A stretch of 64,000 bases of DNA from an uncultured Thermodesulfobacteriota bacterium (lineage in GTDB: Bacteria > Desulfobacterota > Anaeroferrophillalia > Anaeroferrophillales > Tharpellaceae): positions 8,320 to 72,319 of the forward strand of contig CAYWGC010000011.1 of NCBI GenBank assembly GCA_964457755.1, read 5' to 3'. The translations under genes and the position numbers were made by a program. Below the pieces are notes generated by a model that worked only from the letters and a program-made list of their open reading frames with translations, had not been told where the DNA came from and did not search any database. Positions 31,390 through 43,685 of this stretch are shown here, piece after piece. Position 1 is the first letter of the stretch. Each line of letters begins with the position of its first letter.

Positions 31390-33174
31390 TTATCTTTTTC
31401 CAGGTAACGGAAAAGCCAGCAAAAAGGTATTACCGGAAAGCTGCAAAAGATCATCGCCGCGCTTGACCATGGCGCAGACCAGCTCATCTTTAACAATCTG
31501 CATGCCCTGCACCGGCCCGCCAATGACTCCGGTCAACTTCTGGACGACAAAACCAGTGTTGCTCTTTTTGATCATTTTAACATGACCCTTATTAAGAAAA
31601 CCATATTCACCTAAAGCGGTCGACATACCGGATTCATTGTCGATTAAAATAATCTCTTTTACCCCGTCACCATCAAAATCATAAACTCTCAAAGGGGAAC
31701 TGATCTCCCTCTTTTCTACATAGCTGACTTTCGGTGTACCAACCTCATACTGAACATCATGCAGAGAACCAGCAAGACGCTCATCACTGACCCAAAGACG
31801 TTTACTGCCCTGATAGATTTCCAGAAAGTTCTGTTTATTGATAAAACAGAGCTCTTTGATTTGGTCATTATTGATATCCTCATAGACGGCACCCGGCAAG
31901 GCAAAACCCATAGGCACAGAAAATTGTCCTACTGAAGAAACCTTACTGCCCTTAAATTTTAAAATAAAAACTGAACTATCGAAAAGTACTTCTTCAGCGA
32001 ATCCCTGCCCGACGAAATAGACCCCCTTATCGGCCACAGATCTACCCCCTAAAAGGCTCATAACAAAAGGAATGTTATCGGCTACAATTCGATACTTACC
32101 TTTTTCTTTAGCGATCACAAAAGATGAGAAACCATCTTCGGTCTCTTTGAAGGTATTAACCATGATCTCATCTTTGCGATCACCAGTGATATCGCCAACC
32201 TGAATATTAACTATATCACCCCATTTATCAAAATGATAACGGTAGCTGTATTTCAATCCCCGCTCAGTAATCTCATAAACATAAATTTTTTCGCCATCAG
32301 TAAAGACCATCTCGGCAATCCCGTCATTATCAAGGTCACCGACATCCATACCCTTAACCACCAGACTGACTTCAGCCATCTGACGGTATCTGGTCAAAAT
32401 CGCCTTACCTGCTTCACTCGTCGAAAGGCCATACTTACCCTTAGCGCTGCTACCTTTAAAAGTCCCGGTAAAAGCGCCAGAAACTTCATTTTGACCTGAA
32501 AATTGCGCCGCCGGCCAAGCTGCAACCAACTCCTGGTCACCATTATAGAAAGCCAGATTAGGGCCTTCATTAACGACATAGAGATCATAGCCCAAAGCTC
32601 CGGGGCCTCCCGGCCGACGCAGAGCCTGGCGGTGTTGCAAACCAACCCCATAGTCAGCCCAGTTAAGCTGCGGCAGAGACTCACGGATGCGCGAAAAGAT
32701 TTCTATGCCATTGCCATTAAGATCAATAAACAATGCCGCCATTGAGGCAAAACGTTTAACCAAAGCCCCTCTATTTAGTGGAACCCTAAGATAGCGGTTA
32801 AGAGGCCGACAAATGGCATAATCAGCTTCAACTCGCATCACCCTAAGAGTTGCGACAAGCCTCTCCTGGGCCCCCAGGGAACGCCCCGTGACCGGGTGAA
32901 TCATAGGCACTCCCGGTTGCAGAACTGCAAAAAGGTCACCAACCCCAACCCCCTTCTTGCGGCCGCAATCAACTACAACTCCCTGGGGCCCAACTTGCAC
33001 CAAGTAACCGGATAAAGCCTGAAAACGAGTCATTGGATCAGCGGCAGAAACTGGCAATGAGGCCGCCAGAAAGGCTACAGACAAAAAGCCGAGGATAACC
33101 CGAACTCTCAATTTATATGAATAATATTTGCTCTTCAACACATCCCCCACAACTCTAACCCCAAACCCGGACAA
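31390..33174 (-). CDS. Exported FG-GAP/VCBS-repeat protein with N-terminal FlgT-C-like domain
   Basis: Signal-like segment (AASLPVSAA). VVVDCGRKKGVGVGDLF..IHPVTG.LG is FlgT-C-like. Repeats GDLDNDGIAE, GDITGDRKDE, EDINNDQIKE, YDFDGDGVKE. Confidence 0.8.
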   Translation of the reverse strand: MSGFGVRVVGDVLKSKYYSYKLRVRVILGFLSVAFLAASLPVSAADPMTRFQALSGYLVQVGPQGVVVDCGRKKGVGVGDLFAVLQPGVPMIHPVTGRSLGAQERLVATLRVMRVEADYAICRPLNRYLRVPLNRGALVKRFASMAALFIDLNGNGIEIFSRIRESLPQLNWADYGVGLQHRQALRRPGGPGALGYDLYVVNEGPNLAFYNGDQELVAAWPAAQFSGQNEVSGAFTGTFKGSSAKGKYGLSTSEAGKAILTRYRQMAEVSLVVKGMDVGDLDNDGIAEMVFTDGEKIYVYEITERGLKYSYRYHFDKWGDIVNIQVGDITGDRKDEIMVNTFKETEDGFSSFVIAKEKGKYRIVADNIPFVMSLLGGRSVADKGVYFVGQGFAEEVLFDSSVFILKFKGSKVSSVGQFSVPMGFALPGAVYEDINNDQIKELCFINKQNFLEIYQGSKRLWVSDERLAGSLHDVQYEVGTPKVSYVEKREISSPLRVYDFDGDGVKEIILIDNESGMSTALGEYGFLNKGHVKMIKKSNTGFVVQKLTGVIGGPVQGMQIVKDELVCAMVKRGDDLLQLSGNTFLLAFPLPGKR

Positions 33175-33185
33175 GCCGAAACTGG

Positions 33186-33256
33186 ATTTGTGTTAATTTG
33201 TGTCCATTTGTGGTTAAAAATGCGTAAACCACAAATGGACACAAATTAACACAGAT
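33186..33256. repeat. Periodic-arm palindrome (30-bp arms, 1 mismatch)
   Basis: ATTTGTGTTAATTTGTGTCCATTTGTGGTT ... AACCACAAATGGACACAAATTAACACAGAT; ATTTGTG unit at period 10. Confidence 0.9.
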
Positions 33257-33330
33257 AAAAAACCAAAACATCGCTAATTGCACGGTTACCATATAGCCTT
33301 TTTACTATAAGACCTCAAGCAAAAAGCACG

Positions 33331-33359
33331 AAAAAGGGGAAGCGGTAAACCGCTTCCCC
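33331..33359 (-). terminator. Rho-independent terminator of the porin gene
   Basis: GGGGAAGCGG-TAAA-CCGCTTCCCC 10-bp stem, followed on the minus strand by a T tract. Confidence 0.85.
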
Positions 33360-33387
33360 CTTAGAATTCATTTAGAAAGTAAATCCT

Positions 33388-34824
33388 TTAGAATTTGTAA
33401 CGAACCCGCATGGTGCTGATGAAAACGTCTTCGTCGCTACTGCCATCACGTTCAACTTCGAATGCGTCCAAAGCATCACCCGAAAAAAGGTAACCGGCAT
33501 TAACGGCAAATTCGACGTTATCGTAAAGTTTGTATTTCAGATAAGCATCAACTTCAAAACCAACTTCATCTTCTTTTTCAAGAGTCCCATCAAGAGCATA
33601 GTACTCAACATCTTCGGCAGTCATCATGTACATAACTGAAGAACCCAAAGACAGCTTCTTACTAGCCTTATAGTCGACAGCCAATTTATTCATGATAAAC
33701 CCTTTATCGAGAATATAGGGTTTTTCTGTAAAGTAGTTATCGTCGGTAAAACCACCCTCGAAAATACAGATATTGTCGGCCCGATCCAGATCAACCGCCA
33801 TAAAACCATCAAAATCACTATCGTAAGGATCATCATCACCAGATGAATACCAGAAAGTATAGGTAAATTTCAGGGCATCAAGTTTCATACCAATATCGAA
33901 ATGAGCAAAGTATGCACTTAAATCAAAATCATCATTAAGCGCTCCGGCAGGATCAGACAGATCCTGAAACTGAGAGCCAAGTTTAGAATCGAATTTATAG
34001 ACCTGTACAAACTGAGCTTCATCAATACTACCAGTCTGATACATCAAATCCCAGTTGACAAAGAAATTGCCAAAATTAGCTTTACCATCAGTACCAAATG
34101 TAACAATTGAGGTGTCAAATTTATTTTCCAATTTCTTCAATTCATAATGCTGTGAAGTGATCGTACCACCAGCACCATTATCCAAATCTGAATCTCCAGT
34201 ATGCCAGACACCAAAGATACCAGCCTTAATTCCATCTGCAGGCTTGAAGTTCACACGTGCATAAAAGGCATCCATATCGGATTCATCTTCATCTTCACCA
34301 TAAGAAGCATCTTCCCAAGGACGTAACCAACCGACTTTAATATCAACAGGCCCGGCAGCAAAGTCAGCCGTCACACCCATAACAGTTTCCTGCCAATAAT
34401 ATCCGTTTACTGTAAACGGCTGTAAACCCATACGGACGCGGGCTTTATTACAGGCCCAAGGCAGCTGAAAGTCAGTATAGAGCCAACGAGTTTCGAACAC
34501 CATTCCATCGCCAGAGTAACCACCGGCACCTTTACTTTCATCACCATAATGGAGTGCGCCAACTTCAAAAGCCCAAAGACCTTTAACCTTACCGTCGTTG
34601 GTTGTCGCATCGAACCAGAGACGATACTTGGCTTCCCCCCAAGTCTCATTCACATCACCATCATCTAGACCTGCGTCTTCCATTGCAAGCCAGTCATTAT
34701 GATTCGTGTAAACCATAAAACGATTGTTAAAATCACCTTTGATTTTGACGTCAGCAGCCAGTGCCGGAAGAGCGATCGCCAGCATCATCAAAACTGCCAG
34801 AACTAATCCTAGTCTTCTAACCAT
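33388..34824 (-). CDS. Outer-membrane beta-barrel porin (deltaproteobacterial type)
   Basis: Signal peptide (ALPALA-A), alternating aromatic/hydrophobic strands, acidic loops, C-terminal VRYKF beta-signal, own terminator. Confidence 0.8.
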   Translation of the reverse strand: MVRRLGLVLAVLMMLAIALPALAADVKIKGDFNNRFMVYTNHNDWLAMEDAGLDDGDVNETWGEAKYRLWFDATTNDGKVKGLWAFEVGALHYGDESKGAGGYSGDGMVFETRWLYTDFQLPWACNKARVRMGLQPFTVNGYYWQETVMGVTADFAAGPVDIKVGWLRPWEDASYGEDEDESDMDAFYARVNFKPADGIKAGIFGVWHTGDSDLDNGAGGTITSQHYELKKLENKFDTSIVTFGTDGKANFGNFFVNWDLMYQTGSIDEAQFVQVYKFDSKLGSQFQDLSDPAGALNDDFDLSAYFAHFDIGMKLDALKFTYTFWYSSGDDDPYDSDFDGFMAVDLDRADNICIFEGGFTDDNYFTEKPYILDKGFIMNKLAVDYKASKKLSLGSSVMYMMTAEDVEYYALDGTLEKEDEVGFEVDAYLKYKLYDNVEFAVNAGYLFSGDALDAFEVERDGSSDEDVFISTMRVRYKF

Positions 34825-35032: not shown

Positions 35033-37570
35033 TTAAACTATTCTCAGTATCCCCTCATATAGATAGTCACGCGTATTATTGTAGACATCACGGGGGTCAA
35101 GTTTGCGCCGCGCCAACTTTTGTGTCATCGCCGCAGCCGCCACGGCGGCCGCAACCTGTGGCGGCACCCGCAGGTCCATGGCTGCCGGAATGATCGTACC
35201 TTGGGCCAGATCTTCAGGACTGACCAGAGAGGCGATCGCATTGGCGGCCGCAATCTTCATGGCATCGTCGATCTGACGGCTGCGGACATCGAGCGCCCCC
35301 CTGAAAATGCCGGGAAAAGCCAGGGAGTTATTAACCTGGTTGGGAAAATCAGAACGACCGGTAGCTATCACCTTAGCTCCCGCCGCAGACGCCGCTTCCG
35401 GCATAATTTCCGGTATCGGATTTGAGAGTGCAAAAACTATCGGATCTCTGCCCATACTCTTGACCATCTCTTCAGAGATGGTTTTGGGTTGTGACAACCC
35501 AACTACGGCATCGGCCCCACTTAAGACCGAGGCCAGATCTCCTTTTAATTTTTCCGGATTAGTCAGCTGCGCCATCTCCTCCTTATAACGATTCATCCGT
35601 TTTTTGCGGCCGCCATAAATAGCACCGACCGTATCACACATAATGATATTTTTAATTCCGCCACTGAGCAGAAGTTTGGTCACAGCAGTAGCTGCAGCTC
35701 CAGCGCCATTAACAACAACCTTAACCTCTTCAAGTTTCTTATCTACTATCTTGAGAGCATTGAGCATCCCAGCCAGCACAATCACCGCTGTACCATGCTG
35801 ATCATCATGGAAAACCGGAATATCTAGTTTTTCGCGTAGAATACGCTCTATCTCAAAGCAGCGAGGGGCGGAGATATCCTCAAGATTAATGCCGCCGAAA
35901 ACCGGGGAGATGGCCTCAACCACGCGAACAATCTCGTCAACATCTTGAGTATCGATACAGATCGGCAGAGCCTCAACCCCGCCAAAAGTTTTAAAGAGAA
36001 TTGCTTTACCTTCCATTACCGGAAGGGCTGCCCGAGGACCAATATTACCATAACCAAGCACCGCAGAACCATCAGAGACAACCGCCACTAGATTACTTTT
36101 CACGGTCAGATCGTAAAGCTTATCGGGGTCAGCCATAATCAACTTAGTTGATTCCGAAACCCCGGCCGCCGAGTAGAGGATCGAGGCCAGATGCTTATCC
36201 TTAACCGGGATCTTGGCTTCGATCTCAATAACGCCCATATAACGCTTATGAAGTTCCAAGGATTGTTCATCAAGGCTGACGGCGGTCTCTTTCCGACTCC
36301 CCTTACGCTCTAAAGGCGGCAAAATCGCGAGCTCTCCCTCATAAACATAACGCAATAATTTTGCCTTGATCTTCTCAGGATCAACCGCTTTCCGGTTTAC
36401 CCCGTCAGCAACGGCGGCCGCCGCCACCTGGCGGGCAATCTCCGGGGCCAGACTGAAATCAAAGAGCCGGGGTACAATATTTACTTCACTCAACAAATCT
36501 TCCGGAACATTCTCCTGCAAGGCCTTAACCGCCGCCATCTCCATCCCCCAGGTCACCTTCCAGGCGGCGGCATCAAGAGCCCCTCTGAAAAAACCAGGAA
36601 AAACCAAAGAAGAAGTAAGGTAATTAGGATAATCGATACTGCCGGTTGCAACAATAAAAGCCCCCGCCTTGCGGGCACTCAGGTAATCAATTTCTGGTTG
36701 CGGCAGGGCCAAAGCAAAAACGATCGGTTTAACAGCCATGGTTTTAATTATTTCCGGCTTTAATTGGCCACCACCTGAAAGACCGATGAAAACGTCGGCC
36801 CCAGGCAAAACTTCTTCGAGCGAGCCCTTAAGGCAATCGCAATTTGTAATAAATGAGAGCTCTGCTTTAGCCCAGTTCATATTGGAAGTCCGATGCCGGT
36901 AGATAGCCCCGGCCCGATCGCAAACCACGACCTCACCAGTTCCGAGACGGGCCAGACTACGGGCCAAGGCAATACCGGCGGCCCCGGCGCCGTTAATAAC
37001 AACTTTAGAGGATGCAAGTTTTTTTCCAGCCACTTTGAGAGCGTTATTCAAGGCGGCTAAAATGACGATTGCCGAACCATGTTGATCGTTATGAAAAACC
37101 GGCAGGCGCACCGCTCGCCGCAGACGTTCGACAATCGCAAAACAATCAGGGGAGGCGATATCCTCAAGACAAATGCCACCCATGGTCGGCGCCATGACGC
37201 GAACGATCTCAACAAACTCATCTGAAGTCTGGGCATCGATCGCCAACGGCAAGGCATCGATACCGGCAAAGCTTTTAAAAAAGACCGAGACCCCTTCTAG
37301 CATGGGGATCGATGCCGCAGCCCCCACCTTTCCAAGACCAAAAACTGCGGAGCCGTTGGAAAAGAGACCAACCGTGTTGGCTCGCATTGTATAGAGAAAT
37401 GAGTCGGAAGGATTATCAGCAATCGCCTGACAACTACTGCCAACCCCTGGGGTATAGACCAGACTTAAAATCGAGGTATCCTTAATCGGGACCTTACTGC
37501 ACACCCCGATCAAACCACGATATTTCTTTCTTAAAGCGAGAGATTTTTCTGCTACAGCCATTTTTTTCAA
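35033..37570 (-). CDS. Malic enzyme made of two tandem malic-enzyme domains
   Basis: Two complete copies of YxPGV / GSAVxG / LED / FHxDQHG / GAGAA / FPGxFRGALD. No phosphotransacetylase domain. Confidence 0.92.
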
Positions 37571-37718: not shown

Positions 37719-39116
37719 CTAATAACCCTTGAGGTGATCAATATACTCCGGCAAAAAGAGTGAAATCTGTGGAAAATAAGTTATTAATATCAGGAATATG
37801 ACGAGAATCGAAAGCCACGGTAGAGCTGCCTTTAAGACCCATGCAAGATTATGACCAGTGATGCCGGACATAACAAAGAGATTGAGACCTACCGGTGGCG
37901 TCACCATCCCGATCTCCATATTAACCACCATAATTACCCCCAAATGGATTGGATCAATCCCCAGTTTACGAGCAATCGGAAGAAGAATCGGGGCCATAAT
38001 CAGGATAATTGCCGAAGGCTCCATAAAGTCTCCGGCAAGGATCAGGAAAACATTGACAACAATCAAAAATCCCCAAGCCGGAAGACCCCAGCCAACTATC
38101 ATCTCGGCAAACATGTGGGGGATACGCTCCGTCGTCAAGACATGGGCAAAGAGCATTGCGTTGCCGATAATAAAGAGCAGCATAATGGAGACCTTGGAGG
38201 AGTCCAGCAGCACCTTGCGCACATCGGGATGCGTAATAGAGCGCGGCATCGCCGCAACTGTAAGACGGAGATTACGAGTTATCGCATTGCCCAACGACTC
38301 GTCCTTTTCGACCCAGACCACACCCTTCAAGGGCCCCATATCACGATAGACAAAAATCGCGATAAAAAAAGCATAAACAGCCGAAACCGCAGCCGCTTCG
38401 GTGGGGCTGGCAATACCACCATAGATCGAACCTAAGACGATGACAATCAGCATCAAACCCCAACCAGCGCTGAATCCGGAACGTAAAAGGTTTCCGAACC
38501 CCACCCAGGGCTGAGCTGGAAGCTTCTTGAACCGAGCCACAACATAGATTACCACCATCAGGATTGAACCCATCATGAGACCTGGCAGAAAACCGGCCAT
38601 AAAAAGGCGGGCCGCTGACTCTTCGGTGGCAGCCGCATAAACCAGCATCACAATCGAAGGCGGAATCAAAATACCCAGGGTCCCGGCATTGGTAATGACG
38701 CCGGCCGCCATCGTCTCCGGGTAACCGGCCTTGACCATCCCGATAATAACAATCGAACCGATCGCCGCAACCGTAGCCGGTGAAGAGCCCGAAACTGCGG
38801 CAAAAATCATACAGGCAAGGACTGATGCCATAGCCAATCCGCCGCGAATCCAACCAACGCAATCGATGGCAAAATTAATGATACGGGTGGCAACCCCGCC
38901 GGTCGAGAGAAAGGTTGAAGAAAGAATAAAGAAGGGGATCGCCAGCAAAGTATAGTGTTCCGACTGGGACTCAAAAAACTTCAAGGCAATTGATGCCAGT
39001 GAATCACTGGAAAAAAAGAGAATCGTCGTGATACTGGAGAGACCGAGTGCAAAAGCGATCGGCATTCCGGCAAACAAACAGAGAAAAAGAATAAAGAAAA
39101 GGGCTGCAGTGGTCAT
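37719..39116 (-). CDS. dctM: TRAP transporter large permease
   Basis: GMPIAFALG, LLAIPFFIL, SGSSPATVAAIG, GILIPPSI, GMVTPPVG. Confidence 0.96.
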   Translation of the reverse strand: MTTAALFFILFLCLFAGMPIAFALGLSSITTILFFSSDSLASIALKFFESQSEHYTLLAIPFFILSSTFLSTGGVATRIINFAIDCVGWIRGGLAMASVLACMIFAAVSGSSPATVAAIGSIVIIGMVKAGYPETMAAGVITNAGTLGILIPPSIVMLVYAAATEESAARLFMAGFLPGLMMGSILMVVIYVVARFKKLPAQPWVGFGNLLRSGFSAGWGLMLIVIVLGSIYGGIASPTEAAAVSAVYAFFIAIFVYRDMGPLKGVVWVEKDESLGNAITRNLRLTVAAMPRSITHPDVRKVLLDSSKVSIMLLFIIGNAMLFAHVLTTERIPHMFAEMIVGWGLPAWGFLIVVNVFLILAGDFMEPSAIILIMAPILLPIARKLGIDPIHLGVIMVVNMEIGMVTPPVGLNLFVMSGITGHNLAWVLKAALPWLSILVIFLILITYFPQISLFLPEYIDHLKGY

Positions 39117-39694
39117 ACCGTATCACCCCCTTTAACAACAGTCTGGCCCGATATCTCCTGAGCTAGATGCAGACTCTCTTTAGCCTCATCTGCAAGTCTA
39201 AAACCGTCTACCTTACCCGTATAAACTTCCCACAAAAGCTGTAACAAACGCCAAGCCAGCATGACCATCCCGAGCAATAGAATACTGTGCGCCAGCCATT
39301 TCGGAACCGGCAGGTCCTCCATTTCGATACCAATCATATGGATCTTTTCAAGATAGACCCAAGAACCTTTGATAAAAAGACCACAGTAGACCAGACAACT
39401 AATTACCGCACAAAGGCTGACCAGGCGATGCAACTTGTCGGGCAGCATCTTGACAAAGGTATCGACCCCAATATGGGAACCAACCTTGATTCCGTAGGAA
39501 GCCCCAAAGAGGACCATCCAGGCAGAAAGATGCAAAGTCAGCTCCTCAATCCACATGAACCCAATGCCGAAACCAAAACGCAAAACCACCTCAACAAAAA
39601 CAAGGAGGGTCGCGGCTGCCAAGAGCAAACAGATTACCGTCTCTTCCAGGCTGCTGACAATACGGCTAAACATAGAAAACCCCAACTCCGGCAA
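39113..39694 (-). CDS. dctQ: TRAP transporter small permease
   Basis: Four TM segments, WIEELT, SHIGVD. Lies between dctP and dctM. Confidence 0.93.
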   Translation of the reverse strand: MPELGFSMFSRIVSSLEETVICLLLAAATLLVFVEVVLRFGFGIGFMWIEELTLHLSAWMVLFGASYGIKVGSHIGVDTFVKMLPDKLHRLVSLCAVISCLVYCGLFIKGSWVYLEKIHMIGIEMEDLPVPKWLAHSILLLGMVMLAWRLLQLLWEVYTGKVDGFRLADEAKESLHLAQEISGQTVVKGGDTV

Positions 39695-39718
39695 AACCCG
39701 GCTTAAAAAACAAAAAAA

Positions 39719-39746
39719 TCACGGGCCCCAATTTAGAAGCCCGTGA
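39719..39746 (-). terminator. Stem-loop after dctP (partial terminator or stability element)
   Basis: TCACGGGC...GCCCGTGA preceded on the plus strand by an A tract. Confidence 0.6.
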
Positions 39747-39770
39747 AATCAATCAAAGCAATCTATCTAT

Positions 39771-40766
39771 CTACTTGTTAGCAGCTATCGCAGCATCAAT
39801 ATAATCTTTACCAATCTGACCTTCAAATTTCTTCCAGACCGGTTTCATCTTCTCAACCCACATCTGGCGCTCAGCGTCAGTAAGCTCGATAACTTCGGAA
39901 CGTTTGGAATCAATAATTTTTTGACGATCTTCAATAGATTTCTTAGCTGCAACCGTATTACCGAAAGCGATCGCTTCATCCAAAGAACTTTTGATCCCTT
40001 TCCGCAGCTCATCCGACAGACCCATCCAAAACTCAACCGGAGTAATAACCATATAATCAAGCAGACCATGGTTTGATTCCGTAATATAGGGCTGAACTTC
40101 AAAAAATTTCTTGGAGTAGATATTGGACCAAGTGTTCTCCTGCCCATCAATGGCTTTGGTCTGTAAAAGGGTAAAAACTTCGGAAAAAGGCTTTTTCAAC
40201 GGCATCGCATCGACTGCTTTAAACTGGGCCGCCAGAACATCAGAACTCATGATCCGGAATTTTTTCTTACTCGCATCAGCCGGAACCCTAAGTGGTGAAC
40301 TGGCTGACAACTGCTTAAGACCATTATGCAGATAACCAAGACCAATGAGTCCTTTACTTTTCAAAGACATCAACATCTTCTGTCCGTAAGGGCCATCCTG
40401 GAAGGTACTAACCGCAGCCATATCTTTAAAGAGAAAAGGCAGGTCGTAGAGTTGCAGGACCTTGGTATATTTTTTAAATTTTGAGAGCGCCGGACACGCC
40501 AATTGAACATCTCCCAAGAGCATTGCTTCAAGAACTTTGTTGTCACCAAAAAGTTGAGAATTAGGGAAAACCTCAACTTCAACTTTGCCAGGCAGACGTT
40601 TTTCAACAAGCTCTTTAAACTTGTTTGCCATCTGACCCTTCGGAGTGTTTTCGGCAACCACGTGCGAAAATTTAATGACAACAGGATCCGCGACCGAGAC
40701 TGTCGCGAATGCCATCAAAGCCACGGCCACCACCAGACTGAACACTAAAAGTCTACTTTTTTTCAT
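39771..40766 (-). CDS. dctP: TRAP C4-dicarboxylate-binding protein
   Basis: Signal peptide, KFSHVVAENTPKGQ, FPNSQLFGD, LYDLPFLF, KKFRIMSS, DGQENTWSN. Confidence 0.95.
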   Translation of the reverse strand: MKKSRLLVFSLVVAVALMAFATVSVADPVVIKFSHVVAENTPKGQMANKFKELVEKRLPGKVEVEVFPNSQLFGDNKVLEAMLLGDVQLACPALSKFKKYTKVLQLYDLPFLFKDMAAVSTFQDGPYGQKMLMSLKSKGLIGLGYLHNGLKQLSASSPLRVPADASKKKFRIMSSDVLAAQFKAVDAMPLKKPFSEVFTLLQTKAIDGQENTWSNIYSKKFFEVQPYITESNHGLLDYMVITPVEFWMGLSDELRKGIKSSLDEAIAFGNTVAAKKSIEDRQKIIDSKRSEVIELTDAERQMWVEKMKPVWKKFEGQIGKDYIDAAIAANK

Positions 40767-40938: not shown

Positions 40939-41577
40939 TCAGGGTTCGATAAGGTGATTTTGCATGGCAAAACGAGATAGTTCGGCGTTATTGCGCAGAT
41001 TCAGTTTTTTCAACAGACGAGAACGGTAGGTGTCGACGGTTTTAACGCTGATATGGTAGGCATCGGCAATTTCATGATTGGTCTGTCCCAGAGCCAGCTG
41101 CCGAAGAACCTGCAACTCCCGGGTTGACAGTGAATCGAGGGGAGATCTTCCACTGACTCCTTTAGCCAGCCTTAAAGCCAGCATCTCCACCGCTTCTTCT
41201 GTCAAATAACGAGCCCCACCATAGACTTTACGAATCGCCGAAACCAGCTGTTCCGGGGCTGAACGCTTCGTCACATAACCCATAACCCCGACCTCGACGG
41301 CCCGAATTACATACTGCTCCTCTTCATGCATGGTCAGGATAATAATCGGCAATGCCGGATAAGTTGCCAACAATTGCGCCGCCACCTCAAGCCCATCGAG
41401 ACCCGGCATCGAGATATCGATAACTGCCACATCTGGCGGCGACTTTAAAGCCAGACGCACAGCTTCGCGCCCATCACAGGCCTCGGCCACGACCTCGATA
41501 TCACCGCTTTCTTCAACAATCCGGGCCAAACCGGCCCGGACAATCGCATGATCATCAGCCAGGAGTACTTTTATCAT
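40939..41577 (-). CDS. NarL/UvrY-family response regulator
   Basis: LADDH..AVIDISMPG..YVTK receiver; LSTRELQVL..ISVKTVDTYRSR LuxR-type HTH. Confidence 0.95.
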   Translation of the reverse strand: MIKVLLADDHAIVRAGLARIVEESGDIEVVAEACDGREAVRLALKSPPDVAVIDISMPGLDGLEVAAQLLATYPALPIIILTMHEEEQYVIRAVEVGVMGYVTKRSAPEQLVSAIRKVYGGARYLTEEAVEMLALRLAKGVSGRSPLDSLSTRELQVLRQLALGQTNHEIADAYHISVKTVDTYRSRLLKKLNLRNNAELSRFAMQNHLIEP

Positions 41578-43685
41578 GAGTTATCATCCCAATTTAAAGG
41601 AGTAGTAAAGACAACCTTGGATCCCTGACCAGACTCTGAAAAAACCTCAAGGGAACCACCGACCAGAGCAGCCCTTTCGCGCATCCCCGCGACTCCAAGC
41701 CCGGCTGTTTCCGGCAATTGTTCCAGGGTAAAACCGCAGCCATCGTCCTCGATAACAACGCTGAGTAAAGATTTTTCGACTGCCAGAGAGATGGTCACCT
41801 GATCAGCCTTTGCATGGCGGGCAATATTGGTCAAGGCTTCCTGCGCTATACGATATGCCGCAGTCGCCAGAACCTCACTTAAATGAGGTATCGCGCCATC
41901 TGATTTGAAGGCACAAGTAATCCCGAGCCGCCGTTCAAAATCGGCCGCATACCACTCTAAGGCTTCAACCAGACCCAGATCATCAAGAATACCGGGCCGC
42001 AAGCGCAGAGCAATACTCCTGACCTCGTCAATCGTATCGTCAATCAAAAAACCCATCATCGAGGCCCGATCAGCGGCTTTTGCATCATGCGGACGTAATC
42101 TTTCCGCCAACCAGACCGTCTCTATCCGCAAAGCGGTGAGAACCTGACCGAGCTCATCATGCAGCCCTCGGGCGATGGCAGCCCGCTCCTTCTCTTGGCC
42201 CGCCATAATGCTGCCTGAAAGACGCTGTAATTCAGCCGTTCTTTTTTGCACCTGACACTCCAGATCTCGGGTATAAAGACTAAGTTTTTCCTGGGCCTGT
42301 TTAAGAGCCTCCTCAGCTTTTTTATGGTCACTTATATCGATCGAAACCGCTAACGAACGAACAATCACCCCATCTTGATCGCGATCACCAATCGCCGAAA
42401 GCAGAACATCCATCAAAGTCCCATCTTTACAAAGATATTGATAAGCGATATCTTTACAGAATCCAATACGAAAAAACTCCGGTAAAACCTCTTCCTGAGC
42501 ATAACGTCCTGAGTCAGGTGTCAGAAAATCGAGCAACGGCTTACCAACCACCTCATCCCGCCCATACCCCAAGACCTCAAGCCAGTGATCACTGACGCTA
42601 ACCAGACATCCAGAGAGGTTGATTGAGTGGAGCATGGCCGGCGTATTATGATAGATCGAACGGTAGCGCTCTTCACTCTCCCGCAAAGCCTGTTCGATAT
42701 TCTTGCGCTGAAAAATCTCAACACTGGCTTTACGATAGAGGAAAAAGACGGCAAAAGCAACAAGGATGCAAAGGGTTATCACCGTCGGTACGGTAACTCG
42801 AACCAGAGGGTCAATAACGACCTTGTAAATCGCCTTAAGACTGCGCAGATGAACGACATGCCAACCCGGAAAACCATCGATCTCTAAACGGTTAACAAAA
42901 TATCTATTACCATCTTTATCGATCGCATAGTGTTCACCATCCTGCTGCAAACCAGTCCAGGTCCAGGGCCCGCGACCAAACTGACGGGATTCGACGAGCC
43001 CACGCTGTTCCCGCTCAGAACATTGCCAGAGCAGTTGAAAGAGCCAGGCTTTACGATTAGCAATAAAAATCAAACCGTGAGGATCGGTGACCACGACGAT
43101 CTCATCCCGACTCTGACCCAGTTTTTTCTCAATCTGCTCAAGTGATGCCTTGATAACCGCAACGCCCGACGGCAACTCCCCCGAGTTCGTAAACACCGGA
43201 TAACTGCAATAGACCCCCCGTTTACCAGAAGTCGTGCCCAGCGCTAGGTAGGATGCCGCAACCCCATCTACAGCCCCCTGAAAATAGGGACGGAAAGCAA
43301 AATTTTTACCTACAAAACTATCACTTTCATGACGATTACTGGAAGCAATCGTAACCCCGTCATAATTCATCAGATAGCAGACATCAGCCCTTAAAGTACT
43401 CTTGAAATGATCCAGCAAAGTATTGGTTTGAAACTCTGCCTCAGCTCCACCATCATGCAAAAATTCAACTAACTGCGGCATACCGGCCAGGGTCCGAACC
43501 GGTTTGATATTTTCCGAAAGAAAAGTGGAAAGATTTTTCTGGGTAATTTCAACCCGGGTAACGGCTTGGTGCTCAGCTTCTTTAAAAGCCGCTTTTTTCA
43601 AAGAGGTGTAATAAAGATAGCCTCCGGTTGCCGCCGACAGGAAAGCGAGCAGAGATAAAACAAGAAAGATTAGACGCAGTTTCAT
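41574..43685 (-). CDS. Sensor histidine kinase: DctB-like dCache, PAS, HisKA_3 (NarX-type) kinase
   Basis: Two TM helices. Periplasmic SFVGKNFAFRPYF (DctB-like). PAS domain. ERAAIARGLHDELGQ H-box, EALTNIARH, DDGCGF, GLGVAGMRER. Confidence 0.92.
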   Translation of the reverse strand: MKLRLIFLVLSLLAFLSAATGGYLYYTSLKKAAFKEAEHQAVTRVEITQKNLSTFLSENIKPVRTLAGMPQLVEFLHDGGAEAEFQTNTLLDHFKSTLRADVCYLMNYDGVTIASSNRHESDSFVGKNFAFRPYFQGAVDGVAASYLALGTTSGKRGVYCSYPVFTNSGELPSGVAVIKASLEQIEKKLGQSRDEIVVVTDPHGLIFIANRKAWLFQLLWQCSEREQRGLVESRQFGRGPWTWTGLQQDGEHYAIDKDGNRYFVNRLEIDGFPGWHVVHLRSLKAIYKVVIDPLVRVTVPTVITLCILVAFAVFFLYRKASVEIFQRKNIEQALRESEERYRSIYHNTPAMLHSINLSGCLVSVSDHWLEVLGYGRDEVVGKPLLDFLTPDSGRYAQEEVLPEFFRIGFCKDIAYQYLCKDGTLMDVLLSAIGDRDQDGVIVRSLAVSIDISDHKKAEEALKQAQEKLSLYTRDLECQVQKRTAELQRLSGSIMAGQEKERAAIARGLHDELGQVLTALRIETVWLAERLRPHDAKAADRASMMGFLIDDTIDEVRSIALRLRPGILDDLGLVEALEWYAADFERRLGITCAFKSDGAIPHLSEVLATAAYRIAQEALTNIARHAKADQVTISLAVEKSLLSVVIEDDGCGFTLEQLPETAGLGVAGMRERAALVGGSLEVFSESGQGSKVVFTTPLNWDDNS

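Follow-up and report, generated by a model that had tools for sequence, protein, structure and literature searches.

A tandem malic enzyme of an uncultured Thermodesulfobacteriota bacterium as a candidate single-chain pseudo-dimer with one composite active site

Two malic-enzyme modules in one reading frame

The stretch of DNA analyzed here, termed the window in the following, comprises 64,000 nucleotides from an uncultured Thermodesulfobacteriota bacterium and holds on its reverse strand the gene for a tandem malic enzyme (ME), in which two modules of this enzyme follow each other in a single chain. Its features and those of its neighbors are collected in Table 1. Read from a TTG codon at 37570, the open reading frame has 845 codons; the ATG at 37561, which would yield a protein of 842 residues, is more likely to be the start, because the orthologues begin at Met4 and the TTG lacks spacing from the sole AGG found upstream. 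Pfam recognizes two malic (PF00390) and two Malic_M (PF03949) stretches in the 845-residue protein, with scores of 149.8 and 137 bits against cut-offs of about 23, and this places it in the malic enzyme superfamily. Residues 1-424 align end to end with residues 425-845 at 43% identity (E = 9e-111), a likeness that the alignment statistics put far beyond chance. Module 2 matches the solved small MEs 2a9f and 5cee with E values of about 1e-115, and module 1 matches 5cee with 354 bits over residues 2-394. By these matches, the protein consists of two complete small-type malic-enzyme modules in one chain.

The predicted structure is in line with this assignment. AlphaFold2, run on the 845 residues as a monomer only and with 55 family sequences, returned a model of the whole chain with a mean predicted local distance difference test score (pLDDT) of 93.2 and a predicted template modelling score (pTM) of 0.92, low confidence being confined to the linker (residues ~411-430). 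In Foldseek, the whole chain of 5cee including its swapped arm superposed on one module with a template modelling (TM) score of 0.97 and 1.3 Å over 388 columns, and the whole chain of 1vl6, again including the swapped arm, did so with a TM score of 0.95 and 1.5 Å; in both cases the superposition is on one module, and the output leaves unspecified on which of the two. The model thus shows what defines the small type, a module of ~380-440 amino acids with a swapped crossover arm. The chain differs from a homodimer of identical subunits in that its modules are fused, are 43% identical, and leave one site without catalytic residues.

Three other assignments were tried and rejected. Against a MaeB hybrid, Pfam detected no PTA family, and the NCBIfam model PRK12861 reached 672 against a cut-off of 1178, with its ME part alone matched, twice. 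Large-type MEs (SfcA/MaeA, eukaryotic ME) have subunits of ~560 amino acids that include tetramerization domains, and they use their Tyr in cis; for this type, model NF010052 scored 197.8 against a cut-off of 326, and the large MEs of the PDB gave E = 1e-27 or weaker and a Foldseek TM score of 0.55. For a malolactic enzyme, NCBIfam NF041582 gave 113 bits against a cut-off of 850.

In a search over 5.8 billion proteins, at least 118 homologues of full length (~840 amino acids) showed the same double architecture, at 52-90% identity. The sequence-only reading of this stretch had left room for an assembly artefact or a recent fusion through a lost stop codon, and this is now ruled out as nearly as such a thing can be: the homologues come from independent assemblies of several phyla and agree in length and layout, and purifying selection acts on both modules. 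The tandem was found in metagenome-assembled genomes of Thermodesulfobacteriota, NC10 and Chloroflexota/Thermomicrobiales among the GTDB species genomes, and Ca. Tharpella aukensis carries it at 84% identity. Note that the GTDB scan used poorly conserved peptide patterns, and the 11 loci that it returned are a taxonomic sample and no census.

Table 1. Positions within the window of the tandem malic enzyme gene, its modules and motifs, and the neighboring genes
Feature	Position	Strand	Basis or remark
Tandem malic enzyme gene	35033..37570	-	uninterrupted open reading frame; 2x PF00390 and 2x PF03949
Module 1, residues 1-411: complete small-ME fold, catalytically dead body, proposed Tyr donor	36338..37570	-	match to 5cee, motif states, dN/dS ~0.05 (non-synonymous over synonymous substitution rate)
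Arm 1 (crossover segment), residues 20-64	37379..37513	-	YTPGV at residues 39-43 = 37442-37456; Tyr39 codon 37454-37456
Val94 codon GTC at catalytic-Lys position of module 1 (LEGV)	37289..37291	-	V in 16/118, K in 89/118
Module 1 FHNDQHG, Asn161 in place of triad Asp (equivalent of human ME2 D278)	37076..37096	-	position 161 is Asp in 0/118
Module 1 GAGAAG dinucleotide-binding motif, residues 194-199	36974..36991	-	retained; G194, G196 and G199 all 118/118
Module 1 ALP, Leu289 in place of Asn of ANP/SNP	36701..36709	-	L in 88/118, N in 16/118
Module 1 GSID.PNYLTS in place of canonical GRSD.PNQVNN (T319, S320; Arg and both Asn lost)	36611..36643	-	translation and family alignment
Inter-module linker, residues ~412-432	36275..36337	-	sole low-confidence stretch of the AlphaFold2 model, pLDDT 54-62
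Module 2, residues 433-845: proposed catalytic module	35036..36274	-	matches to solved small MEs; all catalytic motifs 118/118
Arm 2, residues 447-492, degenerate Tyr loop YSAAGV (residues 466-471)	36095..36232, loop 36158-36175	-	Y466 118/118
Module 2 MEGK, catalytic Lys522	36005..36016	-	118/118
Module 2 NLEDI, metal ligands Glu564 and Asp565	35873..35887	-	118/118
Module 2 FHDDQHG, triad Asp589 and metal ligand Asp590	35792..35812	-	118/118
Module 2 GAGAAA NAD(P) motif, GxGxxA as in NADP-dependent MaeB structure 6zn4	35690..35707	-	alignment
Module 2 SNP (35417-35425) and GRSD.PNQVNN-type motif (35327-35359), substrate/cofactor residues	35327..35425	-	N717, R739, N747, N748 118/118
TRAP transporter directly upstream: dctP (39771-40766), dctQ (39113-39694), dctM (37719-39116)	37719..40766	-	Pfam and NCBIfam
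dCache/PAS HisKA_3 sensor kinase (41574-43685) and LuxR-type response regulator (40939-41577)	40939..43685	-	syntenic in L001, L009
Desulfovibrio-type porin-like protein (33388-34824) and FG-GAP repeat protein (31390-33174), downstream	31390..34824	-	syntenic in L001, L005, L006, L009

Catalytic residues and crossed conservation

Small prokaryotic MEs are obligate entangled homodimers with composite active sites: one subunit supplies the catalytic Lys and Asp, the metal ligands, the substrate-binding Asn and the NAD(P), and the Tyr of the YTPGV motif comes from the crossover arm of the partner. The sequence-only reading had assumed that this Tyr reaches into the partner subunit, and this is documented for prokaryotic MEs (PMC7902834, PMC11944484); in the Entamoeba enzyme, Tyr65' of YTPGV lies 2.8 Å from Lys120 in the partner protomer, and the same paper describes such an entangled dimer as typical of prokaryotic malic enzymes (PMC11944484). 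The word 'hook' that it used for the Tyr carrier is a misnomer, as the carrier is called the 'crossover' arm and the 'hook' of the MaeB literature is a different element, a separate insert specific to the hybrid enzymes.

The state of each motif was read from the translation of the window's reading frame, and its conservation was counted over the 118 full-length homologues. All residues previously named for the two modules, including the Val codon at 37289-37291, proved correct. A complete catalytic set is present only as a composite of both modules, with Lys522, Asp589, Glu564/Asp565/Asp590 and Asn717/747/748 in module 2 and YTPGV in module 1, where Y39, P41, G42 and V43 are each found in 118 of 118 homologues. 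Module 1 by itself lacks this set, as it carries V94, N161, L289, T319 and S320 at the respective positions. Loss of the first Asp of FHDD is, by the alignment, the lesion of module 1 that runs through the whole family; the Lys-to-Val exchange at position 94 is confined to the subclade of the window (16 of 118), and the second metal Asp of this module is gone in 40% of the homologues. D218 is invariant in module 1, and G263 and A286 are conserved. In module 2, the four to five positions that follow Y466 are variable, with a one-residue insertion. The complementary defects that had been proposed for the two modules are therefore only partly borne out: module 1 has a seemingly dead body and module 2 a distorted loop, but the relation is asymmetric, as Y466 is kept throughout and the loss of Lys is limited to a subclade. 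The difference between GxGxxG in module 1 and GxGxxA in module 2 is no more than a hint on cofactor specificity.

Conservation is crossed between the modules. As evidenced by the per-column entropy, arm 1 is better conserved than arm 2 (1.01 vs 1.57, p = 0.003), whereas the order is reversed in the bodies, with 1.03 in module 1 vs 0.56 in module 2 for the N-domain and 1.21 vs 1.01 for the Rossmann domain (p = 1e-6). Conserved in module 1 alone are S36, T40, P41, G42 and V43, the canonical residues of the Tyr motif, and the 32 positions conserved in module 2 alone are canonical active-site residues. Both modules are strongly constrained, with an approximate dN/dS of ~0.05 in comparison to close relatives; the ratios for the short arms were noisy and inconsistent. 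In a neighbor-joining tree all modules 1 fall into one clade and all modules 2 into another, with the stand-alone enzymes of the PDB outside, and because each set forms a single clade, the tree points to a single old tandem duplication behind the full tandem family.

One member from an NC10 genome (P0025, 840 amino acids) stands out in that its modules are 63% identical, compared with 41-54% in the other members, while the asymmetry of the motifs is kept. Identity between its modules reaches 85% in windows of the alignment, which suggests gene conversion between them.

Reduced and reversed relatives and the proposed pairing of the modules

A search of 1.84 billion cluster representatives followed by domain parsing yielded about 20 further divergent clusters, formed at 50% identity, with two-module layouts. 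In most of these the N-terminal module is trimmed to 110-160 recognizable residues in which VYTPGV is still present, and the C-terminal catalytic module, though complete, is devoid of any Tyr at the loop position (VLSENIA, LFSDNMD, ILTENLL and others). A reversed-order lineage (P0137/P0292, 848 amino acids) has the catalytic module without a Tyr motif first and the dead module with AYTPGVG second. Such two-module relatives are of constant length on many contigs and also lie inside long contigs, and on these grounds we take them to be real genes. An intact Y-x-P-G is found in 83 of 85 single-module catalytic MEs and in 29 of 35 non-catalytic partners, against 2 of 19 catalytic modules of two-module proteins (Fisher p = 2e-15), and of the two single-module enzymes without the motif, one groups with the reduced type and resembles an N-terminally truncated fragment. 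Since the Tyr is required for catalysis, two-module proteins that have lost it from the catalytic module can obtain it only from the partner module.

A rough neighbor-joining tree places some of the reduced forms inside the module-2 clade of the window's family, which would make them products of an erosion of module 1. The 725-residue type, for which AlphaFold2 gave a pLDDT of 86.7 and a pTM of 0.89, falls elsewhere; a separate origin is a possibility only, as a long-branch effect could mimic it.

Several of these relatives have features of their own. The reversed-order proteins (L016 and L017, 5001-7547) carry an extra N-terminal domain of ~85 amino acids before the catalytic module and occur on more than 35 contigs, beside MerR, PIG-L and inositol-phosphatase genes. 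P0122 (860 amino acids, from a cluster of six members) is a full tandem without Tyr in either arm (VSAPGI, IATPGV); its module 2 has lost substrate and cofactor residues (SAP, SRPH, NPFQN) and keeps MEGK, NLEDI and FHDDQHG, and it is probably no longer a malic enzyme. P0200 (1136 amino acids), known as a single sequence, has ~200 extra N-terminal residues, a YTPGV fragment at 198-352, ~390 unassigned residues and a module at 739-1127 that is without Tyr and reads LEGL instead of MEGK.

For the geometry of the pairing we turn to the model. Because stand-alone chains with swapped arms superpose on the module, the arm would be held away from the module that bears it, as it is in the crystal dimers, and in a compact model of high pTM the other module is left as the sole recipient of the arm. 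Domain swaps can close within or between chains, so that the composite site might instead form between molecules, arm 1 of chain A entering module 2 of chain B head to tail to give dimers or higher oligomers. The low confidence of the 20-residue linker in the model leaves room for such an arrangement, to which a monomer-only prediction is blind. Against it stand the pTM of 0.92 for the intramolecular arrangement and the persistence of the layout in the reduced forms despite quite different linkers, and we consider it unlikely.

The Tyr-less relatives also bear on a second alternative, by which module 2 would be self-sufficient: it would form a homodimer with its counterpart in a second chain and rely on Tyr466 for catalysis, and module 1 would be a regulatory or scaffolding pseudoenzyme comparable to the PTA domain of MaeB. 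Such an arrangement would agree with the invariance of Y466 in all 118 full tandems, and with a module 1 that keeps its dinucleotide motif under strong purifying selection. It would leave unexplained, however, why a dead module has an invariant YTPGV and why the loop after Y466 is degenerate; furthermore, arm 1 is the better conserved of the two arms, and in related proteins the catalytic module has no Tyr and the sole YTPGV is in the partner fragment. We judge this alternative very unlikely.

The tandem is thus likely to be a single-chain, single-site pseudo-dimer whose Tyr is donated by module 1. That domain 1 donates its intact Tyr to a single site in domain 2 was the central proposal of the sequence-only reading, and it is well supported by the crossed conservation and by the catalytic modules without Tyr in divergent relatives. 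An ancient tandem duplication would have fused two small-ME subunits, and the two modules would pair with each other inside one chain. Arm 1 would put Tyr39 beside Lys522, Asp589, the metal site of Glu564/Asp565/Asp590 and the GAGAAA NAD(P) site of module 2, and at this sole working site malate would be turned into pyruvate and CO2, with formation of NAD(P)H. The other site, made of arm 2 and body 1, would be catalytically dead because it has lost the Asp of the triad, the substrate-binding Asn and, in the lineage of the window, the Lys. Module 1 would be kept as Tyr donor and as a partner for folding and packing, and this structural role accounts for it without regulation. As its dinucleotide-binding signature is retained, module 1 may also bind a nucleotide.

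Several points weigh against this model. Y466 is invariant although arm 2 is supposed to be idle, and most homologues keep Lys94, Glu136 and Asp/Glu162 in module 1, so that the second site may keep some role. The contact between Tyr39 and Lys522 and the pairing within the chain are drawn from the pTM, the Foldseek superposition and comparative logic, and the malic-enzyme activity of the family is inferred from sequence and models rather than from biochemistry. The trees are neighbor-joining trees on Kimura distances only, the dN/dS values are approximate in that dS exceeds 1 and is saturated in the comparisons with L005, L006, L008 and L009, and the cluster representatives that entered the Fisher test are phylogenetically non-independent.

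Compatible with the preferred single-site model is the view that module 1 has acquired a new catalytic or ligand-binding function, directed to another 2-hydroxyacid or a nucleotide effector, which would make the enzyme bifunctional or allosteric. The module does conserve GxGxxG, D218, E92, E136, H160 and N316, and within the clade of the window V94, N161, L289, Y317, T319 and S320 are each present in 15-16 of 16 members; pocket residues are fixed within subclades, in combinations that differ from one subclade to the next, and the low dN/dS and the invariant Y466 fit as well. Across the family, however, the substrate and metal subsite is variable and has not been re-fixed, a single pocket position (S320 vs N748) is conserved in both modules yet different between them, and other lineages have deleted the Rossmann domain of module 1 and remain under selection. 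We therefore treat a new function of module 1 as a tentative possibility. The variable subsite and the deleted Rossmann domain also partly contradict the 'regulatory ligand pocket' that had been proposed for the second site, which now appears doubtful.

A further, speculative view is that module 1 may use its dead site for allosteric sensing and that the design of donor and acceptor may have arisen more than once; we regard this as possible and, on balance, rather unlikely. Tyr466 of arm 2 would be inserted in the dead site, NAD(P)H, an adenine nucleotide or a dicarboxylate would be read there, and control would be exerted on the single active site across the pseudo-dimer interface via the two crossed arms. 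The full tandem clade, the 725-residue type and the reversed-order type would then represent separate arisings.

Genomic setting and relation to known malic enzymes

In the window, the cluster of sensor kinase and regulator, dctPQM, ME and porin is syntenic with that of relatives at 79% identity or above (L005, L009). In L001 (3238-7840), the locus of a relative whose enzyme is 79% identical (P0005), the place of dctPQM is taken by a Liv-type ABC transporter with Peripla_BP_6, two permeases and two ATPases. L001 shares with the window the sensor kinase and regulator on the upstream side and the porin-like, FG-GAP and aminotransferase genes on the downstream side. By this gene order, one transporter cassette has been exchanged for another in a cluster that otherwise keeps its synteny. 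No transporter lies near the gene in members at 52-57% identity. In two of them, L002 (5707-6963, 3594-4076) and L004 (5703-6818, 3223-3714), the tandem ME divergently adjoins a gene of the Iso_dh family (isocitrate/isopropylmalate dehydrogenase), with ndk nearby, and the setting reads as a neighborhood of central metabolism, not a transporter operon.

The TRAP system of the window matches the generic DctP family only, and the cluster suggests induced uptake and decarboxylation of a C4-dicarboxylate. The sequence-only reading had placed the enzyme downstream of dctPQM and took this to be consistent with malate uptake and decarboxylation. The transporter genes do lie directly upstream on the same strand, but the linkage is limited to the subclade of the window, and a coupling of malate uptake to decarboxylation is plausible for this lineage and is not a property of the family. 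When the operon region was scanned for promoters and terminators, sites were no more numerous than in shuffled sequence, which lends no support to co-transcription with dctPQM. Directly after dctP and before dctQ, an 11-bp GC-rich hairpin is followed by a T-run (39719-39746, reverse strand); it resembles an attenuator inside the operon, which would favor expression of the binding protein over that of the membrane subunits, although terminator-like sites in the region as a whole do not exceed those in shuffled sequence. The porin-like protein has 478 amino acids, a signal peptide and a C-terminal Phe, and reaches 96 bits with the model of the Desulfovibrio-type homotrimeric porin, below the cut-off of 250.

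The current classification of prokaryotic MEs has three types, small, large and hybrid (ME-PTA), to which an ME-ME tandem with one composite site would add a further architecture. The enzyme and the mechanism with a Tyr in trans are known; the single-chain, single-site architecture with its reduced and reversed relatives is apparently undescribed, as full-text searches found, within the literature searched, no description of tandem, fused, duplicated or pseudo-dimeric MEs. A structural paper of 2025 still calls the ME-PTA hybrids the most complicated prokaryotic type. The tandem occurs widely among uncultured Thermodesulfobacteriota, NC10 and Chloroflexota, apparently as their housekeeping enzyme, and goes under the annotation 'NADP-dependent malic enzyme'. 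For organisms that carry it, a stoichiometry taken from this annotation would be wrong, with one site per ~93 kDa in the model proposed here, and so would the cofactor assignment and flux models. The family would also offer a natural experiment on the trans-Tyr mechanism, as evolution has repeatedly stripped one subunit to the Tyr arm, and a clean case of an obligate domain-swapped homodimer that became an asymmetric single chain after duplication. If the design of donor and acceptor did arise several times, it would represent a recurrent evolutionary route for entangled homodimers. The design could also serve as a scaffold for the engineering of single-chain malic enzymes.

The closest known systems are the small-type MEs, represented by 5cee from Ca. 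Phytoplasma, 1vl6/2hae from T. maritima (TM0542), 1ww8/2dvm from P. horikoshii (PH1275) and 3nv9 from Entamoeba (EhME). They have the same module fold (Foldseek TM scores of 0.87-0.97), 43-50% sequence identity to the modules, the catalytic residue set of module 2 and the same principle of an entangled dimer with the Tyr in trans. They are, however, homodimers of ~380-440 residues per subunit with two equivalent sites, whereas the tandem has fused modules that are 43% identical and one full composite site. The hybrid MEs (MaeB, DME/TME) likewise are multidomain proteins (~760 amino acids) in which an inactive, enzyme-derived domain lies beside the ME domain, and they also use a Tyr in trans. 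In contrast to them, the extra domain of the tandem is N-terminal, is itself an ME paralogue and is proposed to supply a catalytic residue besides any regulation; there is no PTA domain, and the architecture implies neither an acetyl-CoA site nor a 'hook' insert. Heteromers in which an active paralogue shares its sites with a dead one are known from the trypanosomatid 'prozyme' systems, deoxyhypusine synthase and AdoMetDC, and from the alpha and beta subunits of plant mitochondrial NAD-ME. These follow the same logic, in which an oligomer with sites at the interface is duplicated, the copies suffer losses that complement each other, and full function is left to the hetero-pair alone. They remain separate polypeptides, whereas the tandem joins its paralogues in one covalent chain, with the donor cut back to a fragment in related lineages.

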